Shown: positions 1 through 4,580, counted from the stretch's first letter. The stretch is DNA of 4,580 bases from a virus (IMGVR_UViG_2698536312_000015); one strand, 5' to 3'. Numbers and translations are program-made. The notes: generated by a model not told the origin, from the letters alone.

Positions 1-12
1 AGTGTAGCGGTA

Positions 13-1446
13 TTAAGCGCAGCTATTTAGTGAATTAAGTAAATTAGTCAGTGACCTTGTAAAGTCTGTTAAACCTTCCTGTGAACCATCGAACATTAAG
101 GCCAGATTATTATTCCATGAATTACTTAAGCGGCCTAACTGCGTCTGAGTAGAGTTAATAATCTTTTCCCATCCACCAGCTTTATCAATCATCCTTCCCA
201 TTTCAGCGGATACTTTAGGAAGAACATCTTTAGAAAGAACCTTACCGTCTTTCATGGCCTTGTCTAATTCTTCCGTAGTCATCCCAAGACTTCTGGCAAA
301 TAACTGAAAAGCACCTGCCATTCTGTCACCTAATTGACCGCGTAGCTCTTCAGCCTGAATCTTTCCTTTAGATGCCATCTGCTCGAAAGCTTTTAAAATC
401 CCGTTAATTTCATCGGTGCTTAGCCCCATTAATCTGGATGTACCAATCACATTAGAAAATAAGGATTCTTTCTGGTCTGCATTCATATCACCAGCACCAG
501 CGGAAAACTTAGCAAAACTGCTTAATGTTTCAATCTGGTCTACACCACTACTATCAGCAAGATTCTTAACAAATTCTGTAGCTCGTTTAGCACCTTCATC
601 ACCTAAAACGAATTGTGCCGCTCGTTGTGATGCTTCTTTTTTCAGACCAACCTCCATAATCCGCCTGTAAGCTTCTAAGGCTGTCTGAAAACTATAAATG
701 GCTGTACCTGCTTTGATTGCACTCGTAGCTAATACATCCAGACTATTTGAAGCATTTTCACTGTGATTATTTTTGCTGGTGGTCTTGTTAAACTTAGAAA
801 GTGTTTCACGAAGAGACTGATTTAACTTTGCTAACTCACGATTAAAAGTTTCGTTTCCAAGTGTCTTGGATTTACTGCTTAAGCTGTAATACTGGCTTTT
901 AAAATACTTCTCAAGCATAGGATTAAAGTCACGAAGCTTGCTCATATTCGCTGAGTAAGCTGCTGTGATTGCTCTGCTTCCGCTAATTCGTGGCTGTCTT
1001 GNNNNNNNNNNNNNNNNNNNNNGTTGTCTAAGTGGCTTTAAAGTATCCTCAATTTCAGTTTTAATCTTAAACGCTCTAGTGTTTTTAAGACGCTGCTCAA
1101 TCTTGGAAACAGTTTTATCGACATTTCTTTCCATTAGTTTGAGAGAATNNNNNNNNNNNNNNNNNNNNNNNNNNNNNNNNNNNNNNNNNNNNNNNNNNNN
1201 NNNNNNNNNNNNNNNNNNNNNNNNNNNNNNNNNNNNNNNNNNNNNNNNNNNNNNNNNNNNNNNNNNNNNNNNNNNNNNNNNNNNNNNNNNNNNNNNNNNN
1301 NNNNNNNNNNNNNNNNNNNNNNNNNNNNNNNNNNNNNNNNNNNNNNNNNNNNNNNNNNNNNNNNNNNNNNNNNNNNNNNNNNNNNNNNNNNNNNNNNNNN
1401 NNNNNNNNNNNNNNNNNNNNNNNNNNNNNNNNNNNNNNNCATACAA
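13..1446 (-). CDS. Tape-measure-domain protein (putative tail length tape measure protein); true start hidden in or near the N-masked block
   Basis: Long minus-strand ORF ending at TAA (13-15). Residues encoded around 190-423 (…GLSTDEINGILKAFEQMASKGKIQAEELRGQLGDRMAGAFQLFARSLGMTTEELDKAMKDGKVLSKDVLPKVSAEMGRM…) match, from memory, the conserved core of phage tape measure proteins (TP901-type / tape_meas_nterm). The frame is preserved across the 21-nt N run. The track start (TTG 1444-1446) overlaps the terminator T-tract and is not credible; the in-frame ATG at 1132-1134 has no Shine-Dalgarno, so the start is probably inside 1149-1439. Confidence 0.6.
   Translation of the reverse strand: MYXXXXXXXXXXXXXXXXXXXXXXXXXXXXXXXXXXXXXXXXXXXXXXXXXXXXXXXXXXXXXXXXXXXXXXXXXXXXXXXXXXXXXXXXXXXXXXXXXXSLKLMERNVDKTVSKIEQRLKNTRAFKIKTEIEDTLKPLRQXXXXXXXXRQPRISGSRAITAAYSANMSKLRDFNPMLEKYFKSQYYSLSSKSKTLGNETFNRELAKLNQSLRETLSKFNKTTSKNNHSENASNSLDVLATSAIKAGTAIYSFQTALEAYRRIMEVGLKKEASQRAAQFVLGDEGAKRATEFVKNLADSSGVDQIETLSSFAKFSAGAGDMNADQKESLFSNVIGTSRLMGLSTDEINGILKAFEQMASKGKIQAEELRGQLGDRMAGAFQLFARSLGMTTEELDKAMKDGKVLSKDVLPKVSAEMGRMIDKAGGWEKIINSTQTQLGRLSNSWNNNLALMFDGSQEGLTDFTRSLTNLLNSLNSCA
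1002..1022. other. N run (21 nt) inside the tape-measure-like ORF
   Basis: Directly seen. Length is a multiple of 3 and the reading frame is continuous across it; flanked by a short direct repeat (TGTCT at 995-999 and 1026-1030; protein ...RQ[mask]RQ...). Confidence 0.95.
1149..1439. other. N run (291 nt) hiding the 5' end of the tape-measure-like gene and its upstream region
   Basis: Directly seen. 291 = 97 codons. Lies between the terminator (1444-1488) and the first visible tape-measure-like codons (<=1148). Confidence 0.95.
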
Positions 1447-1742: not shown

Positions 1743-2453
1743 TCAAACAGCCTTGCTATACTTCTGAGAAATCTTCGTTAACTGCTCAATATCAGCCATC
1801 AAAGCAATCTTCTTCTGCGACTCATATTCACTAACAAGTTCTTTCATAGTATCAAGTTCTTTTTTAAGCTTTTGCTTTAACTTATCCAGTTTACCGGAAT
1901 AATGCTTAGTCAAATTAGCTTCAGCTAACTGAAGAATCTCTTCATCTGTTTTATCAGTCATCAGAATAAATTGACCAGAACCCCTTAATGCTTGTCTGAC
2001 ATCAATTAACCGGAACCCTTCAGGGATACTTTGAAGAACTTTAGGAACGTCTTCAATCGCTGTACCAAAACCATCATTAAAGTTTCCTTCATAATAGATA
2101 AACGGGTTTGACTTAATCTCGTAAGCAATATCATATTCTGAAGGTTTCGAGGTTTCTTCGAAGTTCTTAACAGCATCGTAAGCGACATCAAGTCTAAGAC
2201 GCTGTGATTTTAAAGCTGGGTAATATTCACGCTCAAGCTCAAATAGTGCTTCAGTTTTGCAGATATCAGGCATTTCTTGAGGCTCAGGAGACACAAAGGA
2301 AATTACCTTTGGTGACATCTTTAGCTCTTGCTCAAGCTCAATGCGCTTGTCATGCTCTTGACGCTGAATAGTATGTAGCGGATGTTCACCCTGTGGTGAC
2401 CAGTCTCCGAAGCTATCAACCTTTTTACCGTTAATATATAAATCGTTTGTCAT
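1743..2453 (-). CDS. Hypothetical acidic protein (236 aa) with a Lys/Glu-rich, probably helical C-terminal region
   Basis: ATG at 2451-2453, TGA at 1743-1745. Immediate upstream sequence is ATTATA then N; an identical ATTATAATG 35 nt upstream is preceded by GAGGAA, suggesting the hidden copy also carries an SD. C-terminus …KLDKLKQKLKKELDTMKELVSEYESQKK… is coiled-coil-like by composition. Confidence 0.7.
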   Translation of the reverse strand: MTNDLYINGKKVDSFGDWSPQGEHPLHTIQRQEHDKRIELEQELKMSPKVISFVSPEPQEMPDICKTEALFELEREYYPALKSQRLRLDVAYDAVKNFEETSKPSEYDIAYEIKSNPFIYYEGNFNDGFGTAIEDVPKVLQSIPEGFRLIDVRQALRGSGQFILMTDKTDEEILQLAEANLTKHYSGKLDKLKQKLKKELDTMKELVSEYESQKKIALMADIEQLTKISQKYSKAV

Positions 2454-2485: not shown

Positions 2486-2494
2486 CATTATAAT

Positions 2495-2500
2495 TTCCTC
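2495..2500 (-). promoter_or_regulatory. Shine-Dalgarno (GAGGAA) 6 nt upstream of ATG 2486-2488
   Basis: Minus strand reads GAGGAA-ATTATA-ATG, an ideal initiation context. That ATG is out of frame with the 236-aa ORF and would give at most an 11-codon ORF ending at TAA 2453-2455. Confidence 0.5.
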
Positions 2501-2550
2501 TAAGTGTGGTTATTTCTTAATAGAGCACCTTCAACGCCAATACACTTAGA
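2499..2550 (-). promoter_or_regulatory. Possible RNA hairpin abutting the ribosome binding site
   Basis: Perfect 9-bp inverted repeat TCTAAGTGT / ACACTTAGA (plus 2499-2507 and 2542-2550), 34-nt loop. On the minus-strand transcript the 3' arm runs directly into the GAGGAA SD. No U-tract follows, so not a terminator. Confidence 0.35.
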
Positions 2551-2557
2551 AGATGAC

Positions 2558-3454
2558 TTAACGATTTATTAAAGNNNNNNNNNNNNNNNNNNNNNNNNNN
2601 NNNNNNNNNNNNNNNNNNNNNNNNNNNNNNNNNNNNNNNNNNNNNNNNNNNNNNNNNNNNNNNNNNNNNNNNNNNNNNNNNNNNNNNNNNNNNNNNNNNN
2701 NNNNNNNNNNNNNNNNNNNNNNNNNNNNNNNNNNNNNNNNNNNNNNNNNNNNNNNNNNNNNNNNNNNNNNNNNNNNNNNNNNNNNNNNNNNNNNNNNNNN
2801 NNNNNNNNNNNNNNNNNNNNNNNNNNNNNNNNNNNNNNNNNNNNNNNNNNNNNNNNNNNNNNNNNNNNNNNNNNNNNNNNNNNNNNNNNNNNNNNNNNNN
2901 NNNNNNNNNNNNNNNNNNNNNNNNNNNNNNNNNNNNNNNNNNNNNNNNNNNNNNNNNNNNNNNNNNNNNNNNNNNNNNNNNNNNNNNNNNNNNNNNNNNN
3001 NNNNNNNNNNNNNNNNNNNNNNNNNNNNNNNNNNNNNNNNNNNNNNNNNNNNNNNNNNNNNNNNNNNNNNNNNNNNNNNNNNNNNNNNNNNNNNNNNNNN
3101 NNNNNNNNNNNNNNNNNNNNNNNNNNNNNNNNNNNNNNNNNNNNNNNNNNNNNNNNNNNNNNNNNNNNNNNNNNNNNNNNNNNNNNNNNNNNCCTTGAGA
3201 TATTTTTCAGGGCTAACGCTGTATTTGTTCGTTTCTTCGATAATAAGACGCTTCATGTTTGAGTCGGTAACAGGAAACATAAAACGCGGTTCACCAGTTT
3301 CAATTTCCTGAATAAAGTCTTCAATTTCTTCTGAGTTTTCAGCCATTAGCTTTAGTAATTTATCAAGGTCAATTGATACACCGGAATCAGCGAAAGCCTG
3401 CACCATCATAGCAGTGTCGCTATCAATGAAAATCTGTAATTCATATTCGTTCAT
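2558..3454 (-). CDS. Hypothetical protein with strongly acidic N-terminus; only the first 87 codons are visible, the rest is N-masked
   Basis: ATG at 3452-3454 with AAGGAG 9 nt upstream; the track's TTG 3485-3487 start is rejected. Visible N-terminus MNEYELQIFIDSDTAMMVQAFADSGVSIDLDKLLKLMAENSEEIEDFIQEIETGEPRF… has 19 D/E vs 8 K/R in 87 residues. The ORF then enters the N block at 3192; the end at 2558 is only the first stop after the mask and is unverified. Confidence 0.5.
   Translation of the reverse strand: MNEYELQIFIDSDTAMMVQAFADSGVSIDLDKLLKLMAENSEEIEDFIQEIETGEPRFMFPVTDSNMKRLIIEETNKYSVSPEKYLKXXXXXXXXXXXXXXXXXXXXXXXXXXXXXXXXXXXXXXXXXXXXXXXXXXXXXXXXXXXXXXXXXXXXXXXXXXXXXXXXXXXXXXXXXXXXXXXXXXXXXXXXXXXXXXXXXXXXXXXXXXXXXXXXXXXXXXXXXXXXXXXXXXXXXXXXXXXXXXXXXXXXXXXXXXXXXXXXXXXXXXXXXXXXXXXXXXXXXXXXXXXXXXXLINR
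2575..3192. other. N run (618 nt) hiding most of the acidic-protein gene, possibly more than one gene
   Basis: Directly seen. 618 = 206 codons; content unknowable from this window. Confidence 0.95.
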
Positions 3455-3462
3455 TTTTAAAA

Positions 3463-3470
3463 TCTCCTTT
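3463..3470 (-). promoter_or_regulatory. Shine-Dalgarno (AAAGGAGA) for the acidic-protein gene
   Basis: Complement of 3463-3470 reads AAAGGAGA, 9 nt before ATG 3452-3454; a second SD-like GAGGAGG lies at 3479-3485. Confidence 0.65.
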
Positions 3471-3632: not shown

Positions 3633-3833
3633 CTACCAATAACCTAATTCCGCTTTATTTCGTTCAAACCATTCCGCTGTAACTGCTGTCTTTAGTGTTG
3701 CGTTTGGGCTGGTGGCATGAATGAAGATATCTTTTGGATTGCAAGCATCACCGAAACCACCTTCTTTGATGAGCAGGTCTGATACATGCTTAATCATTTT
3801 ATCTGTCAAATATTCGAATTTAATACATAACAT
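3633..3833 (-). CDS. Hypothetical small protein (66 aa from ATG; 77 aa if the upstream TTG at 3864-3866 is used)
   Basis: ATG at 3831-3833 overlaps the stop of the upstream ORF in a TAATG arrangement, with GGAGA 4 nt upstream; TAG at 3633-3635. No family recognised. Confidence 0.5.
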   Translation of the reverse strand: MLCIKFEYLTDKMIKHVSDLLIKEGGFGDACNPKDIFIHATSPNATLKTAVTAEWFERNKAELGYW

Positions 3834-4105
3834 TAAATCTCCAGGAGTAAATTGTTTGGGTGGCAATTTCTTTTATTACCATCCCTGAAGATAATCTTTT
3901 TAGTTGCCTGAACTTCATGATGCAAAAACCAGATGACATACTTCAGATAATAATCACGAGTGCCATAACGAATCATTGGATTACCGTAAGCATCATCTCT
4001 TGTCTTAACCTCTCCACCATCAATCCATTCAAGCATTCCTGTCTCATAATTAATCATGAAGTAAGTTGCAAAGAACCGTTTAATATCATCTCGCCATTGC
4101 TTCAT
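3833..4105 (-). CDS. HNH_3-like (homing-endonuclease-like) small protein, apparently lacking the catalytic histidines
   Basis: ATG 4103-4105 preceded by a perfect SD AGGAGGT (4112-4118, 6-nt spacer); TAA at 3833-3835. C-terminal half …YLKYVIWFLHHEVQATKKIIFRDGNKRNCHPNNLLLEI resembles the HNH_3 core as I recall it (…HRLVW…DHIDGNK.NN…NL…), but with F/R where the His of H-I-D-G-N is expected, and it stops right after the NL motif. Confidence 0.5.
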   Translation of the reverse strand: MKQWRDDIKRFFATYFMINYETGMLEWIDGGEVKTRDDAYGNPMIRYGTRDYYLKYVIWFLHHEVQATKKIIFRDGNKRNCHPNNLLLEI

Positions 4106-4107
4106 AA

Positions 4108-4386
4108 TCAGACCTCCTGAGACAGTTTGTGAATTTTGATACTTAGTAACCTTGCTAAATCCAGTCCAAAAGCATTTAAGGATTTCAGACTATCAAGGTC
4201 ATCTTGCTTAATCCTGATATGGTGTCTTGCAGCCTCTAAGCGACTATTAAGCAAATCCTGTTCGTTAATATCACGGTTAATTGCAAGCTTCATCACTGCT
4301 GAGTGTGGCAGACCTGTAATGTTTTTGATTCGGTTCAGTTCATCAAAGGCTGTCTTTGTAACTCTGGTTAATGTGTGTTTATTCAT
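4108..4386 (-). CDS. Ribbon-helix-helix (CopG/Arc/MetJ-like) DNA-binding protein, 92 aa
   Basis: ATG 4384-4386 with AGAGGA (4394-4399) 7 nt upstream; TGA at 4108-4110. N-terminus MNKHTLTRVTKTAFDELNRIKNITGLPHSAVMKLAINRD fits the RHH pattern (beta-strand, helix A, G-x-x-x-S-A turn, helix B; compare CopG …MGLSKSAMISVAL…). A ~50-aa C-terminal extension follows. Confidence 0.6.
   Translation of the reverse strand: MNKHTLTRVTKTAFDELNRIKNITGLPHSAVMKLAINRDINEQDLLNSRLEAARHHIRIKQDDLDSLKSLNAFGLDLARLLSIKIHKLSQEV
4112..4118 (-). promoter_or_regulatory. Shine-Dalgarno (AGGAGGT) for the HNH_3-like ORF, embedded in the 3' end of the RHH gene
   Basis: Complement of 4112-4118 reads AGGAGGT, 6 nt before ATG 4103-4105; overlaps the last codons of the RHH ORF (…Q E V stop). 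Confidence 0.7.
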
Positions 4387-4580
4387 TTAAAAATCCTCTG
4401 TAACTAAATAGGGGTCAAACTCGAAATCTGGTTGCTCGTTTTCCATTGGCTCAATATTCCCAACGGCAATATGATGTTCAACAATGCCAATTAATTTCGC
4501 GCACATCACAGCAAGCAAAGCGCAATATTTATCGCTTGGTAATTCGTAACTGGATTTGCCCCTATATTTCCAGACATCTG
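4387..4580 (-). CDS. Partial CDS (C-terminal 63 codons; start lies beyond the window edge)
   Basis: Open minus-strand frame from the window edge (4578) to TAA at 4387-4389, ending …NIEPMENEQPDFEFDPYLVTEDF. Its stop directly abuts the ATG of the RHH gene (TAAATG) and its last codons contain that gene's SD. Absent from the ORF track because it has no start in the window. Confidence 0.5.
   Translation of the reverse strand, partial: DVWKYRGKSSYELPSDKYCALLAVMCAKLIGIVEHHIAVGNIEPMENEQPDFEFDPYLVTEDF

Follow-up and report, generated by a model that had tools for sequence, protein, structure and literature searches.

A mis-sized assembly gap in a Shigella sonnei genomic island probably covers the end of a short acidic gene and a putative regulatory junction

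We analysed a 4,580-nucleotide (nt) stretch of DNA catalogued as viral (IMGVR_UViG_2698536312_000015; hereafter the window), in which a run of 618 N at 2575-3192 interrupts the sequence beyond a readable gene for a strongly acidic protein. The initial annotation had located this run correctly and read it as the hidden body of that gene. Comparison with sister genomes indicates that the run is almost certainly a scaffold gap and that the acidic gene encodes a protein of 107 amino acids (aa), of which the gap conceals the last 20. The combined explanation, in which a scaffold gap, a short gene and the regulatory elements of an operon junction account for the region, is in our judgement highly probable.

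The reverse complement of the window is contig CXDB01000223.1 of a Shigella sonnei draft (NCBI GCA_001256715.1), with all N runs shared. As the two are identical including the N, the runs belong to the deposited short-read draft. The 107-aa protein P0003 led to complete and draft S. sonnei genomes (L005-L010), of which the chromosome CP061367.1 (L005) served as the reference for the gap, and blastn aligned every readable segment of the window to it at 100% identity. Five S. sonnei assemblies with 99.9-100% flank identity hold 491 nt where the window has 618 N (L005 10263-10753), and these 491 nt do not differ among L005, L006, L008, L009 and L010. The window contains four N runs in total. The 291 N at 1149-1439 stand for 248 real bases in L005 and conceal the start of a tape measure gene; the 21 N at 1002-1022 stand for 0 bases and are a pure insertion inside the same gene. 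The 26 N at 2460-2485 (2451-2494 with flanks) correspond to -9 bases, a 9-nt overlap ('cattataat') present on both sides, with window 2459 equivalent to L005 10834 and window 2486 to L005 10842. Owing to this repeat nothing is missing from the 26-N run, and the ATG start codon of a 236-aa gene is written twice. Since the run lengths contradict L005, we regard the runs as scaffold gaps with wrong sizes rather than masked biology. A lower GC content was rejected as the cause of the gaps (0.35-0.36 in the hidden parts, 0.375 overall). Positions given below for features inside the 618-N gap are projected from L005, anchored at the right edge of the gap.

The readable part of the acidic gene (3193-3454, minus strand) comprises 87 codons plus 1 nt, begins MNEYELQIF and follows a Shine-Dalgarno (SD) sequence, AAGGAGA, at 3463-3469. 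We reproduced its previously noted composition of 19 D/E against 8 K/R for the minus-strand open reading frame (ORF) starting at 3454, which has an isoelectric point (pI) of 4.18. The hidden end, projected to 3131-3192 on the minus strand (L005 10263-10324), adds the last 20 codons, AAIAILYSDNILVTDSKVVH, and a stop. At the junction of readable and hidden residues the S. sonnei copies read EKYLK followed directly by AAIAILYSDNILVTDSKVVH and the stop codon. The full product has 107 aa, a pI of 4.25 and 21 D/E against 9 K/R. Proteins P0002-P0006, all of 107 aa, are 100% identical across the 87 readable residues, and P0003 alone was found on 322 contigs. RefSeq homologues in E. coli have 102-109 aa and mostly 107 aa (324 nt). 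The family is narrow, forming 18 clusters at 50% identity whose named sources are all Escherichia, Shigella or Salmonella; a scan of genome contigs returned one locus only.

In the initial annotation, 206 further codons were thought to be masked, giving one large acidic protein of ~293 codons that might be a DNA mimic, an anti-restriction protein, a chaperone or a scaffold. An ORF of 309 aa can indeed be drawn mechanically across the N run, and the readable portion is acidic. The figure of 206, however, is merely 618 divided by 3, while the true gap measures 491 nt and hides just 20 codons and the stop of this gene. Every full-length relative stops 20 codons past the last readable residue: relatives are complete at 105-109 aa, and at 107 aa in the S. 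sonnei copies that are identical over the 87 residues. In the genomes with identical flanks the stop lies at L005 10322-10324 and non-coding sequence follows. The proposed functions found no support in family searches (Pfam, PHROGs, NCBIfam, PADLOC and PDB sequences), and the predicted fold is of another kind, a tandem ribbon-helix-helix (RHH). Nor did a structural or chaperone family emerge from PHROG, Pfam or NCBIfam, and the 87-aa fragment had no tblastn match in 50,697 phage records. The large protein is refuted already for the sister genomes and has next to no chance of being right for the source strain. ORF calling on the sister S. sonnei sequence gave the short gene together with a 21-aa membrane micro-ORF, so that the large gene was lost and the suspicion that an additional small gene lay under the N was borne out; it also holds that the window cannot be fully annotated without the missing sequence. 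A different objection is that the source strain might truly have ~618 nt at this place and carry 127 nt that other S. sonnei lack. Among E. coli relatives the intergenic length does vary, three places having insertions of 27-50 nt. Against this, all four N runs exceed the reference length, for two of them the missing sequence amounts to zero or less, and the S. sonnei copies are mutually identical in this region, which makes such an insertion very unlikely. N runs in draft genomes thus need not equal their nominal length or conceal a gene (two of the four here hide nothing), and a sister genome settles such cases within minutes.

The 107-aa protein gave no usable match in Pfam, PHROGs, NCBIfam, PADLOC or a PDB profile search, the last returning chance matches only. 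Sequence models of RHH proteins (RHH_1, RHH_3, Arc, TraY and others) were matched neither in Pfam at E up to 1 nor in NCBIfam or PHROGs. The family alignment is shallow and no deep alignment is achievable; from 124 sequences, AlphaFold2 produced a model with a predicted local distance difference test score (pLDDT) of 81.4 and a predicted template modelling score of 0.73. Its elements are, in order, a strand (residues 6-11), helices 12-24, 30-39 and 41-50, a second strand (56-62) and helices 65-78 and 82-104. The strand-helix-helix topology of the RHH superfamily (Arc/MetJ/CopG) accordingly occurs twice per chain in the model. Foldseek E-values against the PDB were not significant; the top three matches were TraY chains and the fourth was AvtR. 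Searches against viral models retrieved tandem RHH/CopG proteins of archaeal rod-shaped viruses with probabilities of 0.95-1.0 and TM-scores of ~0.6. Across three libraries the best structural matches were F-plasmid TraY, single-chain Arc and the archaeal-virus tandem RHH proteins, and no DNA-mimic protein was among the structural matches of this protein of pI 4.25 and predicted RHH fold. Q7 and R57, one on each strand, are invariant in the family alignment. The model suggests that the 107-aa protein probably folds as a single-chain tandem RHH, and it would then add a sequence-orphan member to a known fold class.

Directly behind the acidic gene lies the micro-ORF (projected 3066-3131, minus strand; L005 10324-10389), which encodes the hydrophobic 21-aa peptide MELVIICFVLIGMIAGASIKV. 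The ATG of the micro-ORF shares bases with the preceding stop (TAATG); no record examined annotates the micro-ORF. The micro-ORF and its TAATG overlap occur in all 31 loci scanned and in 31 of 32 copies of the module, the exception being the duplicated second copy in draft contig L007. Two allelic families were seen, one of 21 aa (MELVIICFVL[IV]GMIAGASIKV) and one of 25 aa, for example MGLIIAWTLLGLFVGCWVGNTVNKN, and synonymous DNA variants exist. With a grand average of hydropathy of 2.21, the product is predicted to be a translationally coupled single-pass membrane peptide. Upstream of the micro-ORF, some islands have a diverged 102-aa variant (MNNYPMTVLIDQET...) or leave the gene unannotated (L014 about 1000-1132; L018 824-1132); the micro-ORF, promoter and RNA are retained there. 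In-frame fusions of the 107-aa protein and the micro-ORF were found in P0039 and in L001 (7938-8262, minus strand), where a one-base frameshift gives a 133-aa product; the L001 copy is flagged as 'frameshifted' by the annotation pipeline PGAP. Such a fusion could reflect decay or a tolerated membrane-anchored form.

The intergenic region that separates the 107-aa gene from its downstream neighbour was compared in 14 aligned loci and later in 26 distinct sequences from E. coli, S. sonnei, E. albertii and IMG/VR contigs; it is present in 477 of 5426 complete E. coli genomes (~9%). A predicted sigma-70 promoter, TTGACA-17-(TG)CATAAT, matches the consensus at 11 of 12 positions (projected 3013-3041, minus strand; L005 10414-10442). 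It lies inside a nearly invariant block, TGTTACCAATCTGTTAAAAAGCTGTTGACAAATAAC, a 16-mer of which is found in 31 of 31 loci at no more than 2 mismatches, and in a consensus scan it was the sole strong sense-strand sigma-70 site between the 107-aa and 236-aa genes. No short repeats that might serve as operators were detected near it. By eye, a second -10-like element (TATATA, TAATTA or TAATAG) directly follows the -10 hexamer in all variants (L005 10443-10451, projected ~3004-3012).

The promoter is followed by a structured RNA of ~190 nt (projected 2815-3006, minus strand; L005 ~10449-10640). A 5' hairpin that shows compensatory variants is followed by an invariant hairpin (GAAAGGU-GCAAU-GCUUUUC) and by a third hairpin of 11-13 bp in three covarying versions; at the 3' end there is an intrinsic terminator (GCCCUAA..UUAGGGC) with U-rich sequence behind it. 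The L005 sequence folds with a minimum free energy of -60.7 kcal/mol (z -3.46). In the alignment of the 26 distinct sequences 90.9% of cells pair, compared with 42-58% when the partners are slid; 10 pairs have both sides changed, compared with 0-4 in these slid controls. The many G-U pairs identify the gene strand as the transcribed one, and since internal ORFs are not conserved the RNA is taken to be non-coding. A candidate leader peptide (MLFV...) that would begin within the invariant hairpin was rejected, its length ranging from 5 to more than 40 codons among variants. Rfam 15 returned chance matches only, which scored 16-21 bits where the gathering scores are 56-230. The gap DNA had no blastn match in the 50,697 phage records. 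The exact hairpin 20-mer occurs in 13 IMG/VR contigs, 11 of which had already been found with the 107-aa protein. We consider that the micro-ORF and the structured RNA are in all likelihood real.

Two further hairpins separate this RNA from the next gene. A second terminator-like hairpin, together with the 5' arm of a leader hairpin, is projected to 2702-2747 (minus strand; L005 10708-10753; AAAGCCCU..AGGGCUUUUC), and its loop insertions vary among loci. The 3' part of the leader hairpin is readable in the window (2489-2574, minus strand; L005 10754-10839), as is an SD sequence. This hairpin has 22 bp, a minimum free energy of -33.9 kcal/mol (z -5.74) and compensatory changes in 11 of its 22 pairs. 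Its apical loop, CUUCUAAGUG, is complementary to CACUUAGAGG at the SD site of the 236-aa gene. The complementarity is kept in three sequence types, CUUCUAAGUG/CACUUAGAGG, CCUCUUCUAAG/CUUAGAAGAGG and UUCACCUCU/AGAGGUGAA, read in part directly from the alignment.

The 236-aa gene (1743-2453, minus strand) is the first of a tail-like operon downstream of the leader. Most NCBI records call its product a 'transposase', apparently an annotation error copied from record to record: the protein matched no model in Pfam, NCBIfam or PHROGs, and tblastn against the 50,697 phage records gave no match. The AlphaFold2 model of this protein, mostly long helices at low confidence, had a pLDDT of 60.7, too low to use. 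A weak resemblance of its N-terminus to a phage tail assembly chaperone (E 0.15) was not accepted as evidence. No sigma-70-like promoter was found on the gene strand between the terminators and the 236-aa gene by consensus scan, and the tail-like operon therefore seems to depend on read-through.

Together these elements suggest that the region is a regulatory junction between two operons of a ~10-kb island. The upstream operon would end with the RHH gene and the micro-ORF, and the downstream, tail-like operon would contain the 236-aa gene, a 69-aa gene, the tape measure gene and a tube-initiator homologue. Transcripts from the strong promoter would end at one or both terminators, as in the pR'/6S RNA/tR' arrangement of phage lambda, and a pseudoknot between the leader loop and the SD site would provide a second block by stopping translation of the 236-aa gene. 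A trigger, perhaps phage infection, would then permit read-through and translation of the tail-like operon, possibly with a phage-encoded antitermination factor. The RHH protein may be a small DNA-binding regulator or accessory factor and is an obvious candidate for acting at the adjacent invariant promoter. We advance this mechanism tentatively, as one more likely wrong than right in the form described. A junction that had never been annotated is nonetheless among the best-conserved DNA of the island, holding a micro-ORF, a near-consensus promoter and a covarying structured RNA.

Several points weigh against this interpretation. The gap content of the source strain is projected from other S. 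sonnei genomes, and the transcripts, the peptide and the DNA binding are predictions from sequence and models. No island protein matched a Q-like antiterminator family in Pfam, PHROGs or NCBIfam searches. Helix 2 of the RNA never varies and so contributes no covariation evidence, and with related sequences the shuffle controls exaggerate the support. For a DNA-binding RHH protein, a pI of 4.25 is also atypical. Duplex and k-mer searches found no conserved complement to the RNA within the island, which also counts against the alternative that the ~190-nt RNA is a free trans-acting small RNA, or a P4/P1-like immunity RNA, and not a cis leader. That alternative draws on the RNA having its own strong promoter and terminator, an invariant 20-nt hairpin and structural covariation. 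Set against it are the apparent reliance of the downstream operon on read-through, with no sigma-70-like promoter found behind the terminators, and the constant company of the same downstream gene family; cis and trans roles are, moreover, compatible. We judge a purely trans-acting RNA to be possible and a little less probable than the cis mechanism.

The acidity of the RHH protein leaves room for a protein-binding role. It might be an inhibitor that binds proteins or mimics nucleic acid on an RHH-like scaffold, directed at a phage or host protein such as a helper-phage regulator or a restriction enzyme. The pI of 4.25, the excess of acidic residues (21 D/E to 9 K/R) and the expected exposed ribbon face, which from the sequence and predicted secondary structure has F9, M59 and D11 besides Q7 and R57, speak for this improbable reading. 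Equally improbable is a toxin-antitoxin-like pair, in which the peptide would be a membrane-depolarizing toxin and the RHH protein its antitoxin and autorepressor, serving island stabilization or abortive infection. RNA (type I) or an RNase (type V), rather than an RHH protein, keeps the known small hydrophobic toxins in check, and the 107-aa protein had no PADLOC or Pfam match. The natural fusions in P0039 and L001 are hard to square with a free toxin, and the two RHH repeats occupy the entire protein, so that a toxin-binding C-terminal tail is absent save for residues 101-107.

The island is bounded by small and large serine recombinase genes. From the small recombinase its genes run in the order 185-aa, 92-aa, HNH-like, 66-aa and 107-aa RHH, followed by the micro-ORF, the RNA region, the 236-aa and 69-aa genes, the tape measure gene, a 'Dit-like' baseplate gene and the large serine recombinase gene. 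All genes of the window lie on the minus strand. The upstream operon comprises the 3' part of the 185-aa gene (4387-4551), the 92-aa gene (4108-4386), the HNH-like gene of 90 aa (3833-4105) and the 66-aa gene (3633-3833). Downstream, the 69-aa gene (1511-1720) encodes a basic protein of an orphan family, with no similarity to the phage tail assembly chaperone. The tape measure gene (13-1446; PF20155, phrog_4036) starts under the 291-N gap and is truncated at the left contig end by an insertion sequence (IS), represented in L005 by a DDE_3 (IS630-like) transposase. A weak Pfam match links the 92-aa protein (L006 9069-9347) to DndE (E 0.027), which also turned up in the structure searches with the 107-aa protein; perhaps the island has a second gene for an RHH-like protein. 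Islands vary in what they carry from the small recombinase gene up to the 185-aa gene: an AP2/HNH homing-endonuclease-like gene in O157:H7 (L020 2800-3324, minus strand) and a DNA N6-adenine methyltransferase in strain KV7 (L003 8724-9392, minus strand).

S. sonnei has the island between yciI and tonB and O157:H7 has it within yecE; in other strains it occupies other sites. The O157:H7 copy is not SpLE2, which lies between cobU and yeeB, and identity with Sp13/CP-933T was likewise rejected: ECs2617, the first listed Sp13 gene, is a 1-kb integrase, against a 1.5-kb large serine recombinase gene here. Numerous IS copies are scattered through the island in S. sonnei, where it is therefore probably defective. 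The contig of the window terminates at IS on either side, its ends (window 1-15 and 4551-4580) coinciding with IS borders (L005 13222-14253 and 18082-18111); window 4551-4580 matches L005 18082-18111, which adjoins a transposase gene of the IS3 family. L007, a further draft of this sequencing project, has an N run (10680-10766) and a duplicated RNA region (at 10515 and 10957) at the same junction. Identical island sequence lies beside yciI/kch in L005 and beside yecN/yecE in the S. sonnei drafts L009 and L010. S. sonnei genomes may carry two copies of the island, and two copies per genome would, we propose, explain the assembly break at the junction.

The 'Dit-like' protein is ~70% identical to the product of the gene after the tape measure gene in Ounavirinae, the Felix O1-like virulent myophages. 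The island gene lies at 16604-17374 in L006 and at 11794-12567 in L020, the phage gene at 6980-7777 in SUSP2 (L032). In phage Bas63 the corresponding gene encodes gp18, the baseplate-hub tube initiator (PMC12609058). The best matches of the tape measure protein are in the same Ounavirinae phages, at 29% identity over the full length. For the remaining island proteins and the gap DNA there was no counterpart in the 50,697 phage records, and megablast of the whole window against these records gave only a 35-nt match at the IS border. The island appears to borrow tail-initiation genes from Felix O1-like phages; no description of the island or of the RNA was found in the literature. It combines an integrase, here a large serine recombinase, with helper-related genes (the tube-initiator and tape measure homologues), a trait of satellites, and may be a satellite or a tail-assembly decoy. 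In its full form the idea is speculative and rather unlikely to hold as a whole: an undescribed satellite of, or defence element against, Ounavirinae, whose own tape measure and tube initiator would hijack or poison phage tail assembly, with the gap sequence as the infection switch (leader RNA and pseudoknot) and the tandem-RHH and micro-protein as sensor or regulator. If the island does interact with Felix O1-like phages, this junction would be the place to study its control.

Among known elements the island resembles PLE of Vibrio cholerae, a satellite of the virulent phage ICP1. From what is generally known of PLE and from one account (PMC13595925), both are small chromosomal islands integrated by a large serine recombinase, with nuclease genes and kinship to a virulent, not a temperate, myophage. 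There is no sequence relationship between them, and the island described here has a tape measure gene and a tube-initiator homologue. No recognizable replication or capsid-remodelling genes were seen in it.

The RHH gene and micro-ORF recall the type II toxin-antitoxin systems ParD-ParE, MazE-MazF and TacA-TacT in that an acidic RHH protein comes first, its stop overlaps the next start and the pair resides on a mobile element. In contrast to these systems, the second gene encodes a membrane peptide of 21-25 aa that belongs to no known toxin fold or family, both RHH repeats are in one chain, and fusions of the two products occur. Like TraY of the F plasmid, AvtR, the tandem CopG proteins of archaeal rod-shaped viruses and engineered single-chain Arc, the 107-aa protein would have two strand-helix-helix repeats within ~100-120 residues per chain. 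Identity to these proteins is 9-15%, with no detectable sequence similarity and no Pfam TraY or RHH match; the protein is acidic where they are basic, and its model has an extra helix (41-50) between the repeats. Unlike traY, its gene adjoins no relaxase gene or oriT, the neighbours being HNH, orphan, tape measure and recombinase genes.

The late unit of phage lambda consists of the pR' promoter, the 194-nt 6S RNA and the tR' terminator, with antitermination by Q. As judged by consensus scans, the junction would share with it a strong, constitutive-looking promoter, a terminated RNA of ~190 nt and, just downstream, promoterless morphogenetic genes, and the second -10-like element resembles the sigma-dependent pause signals of lambdoid late promoters. 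The gap DNA has no sequence similarity to lambdoid phages, and no Q-like protein or Q-binding element was identified. In contrast to the lambda unit, the RNA of the island has a conserved internal structure and is followed by an additional hairpin predicted to sequester the SD site of the first tail-like gene.

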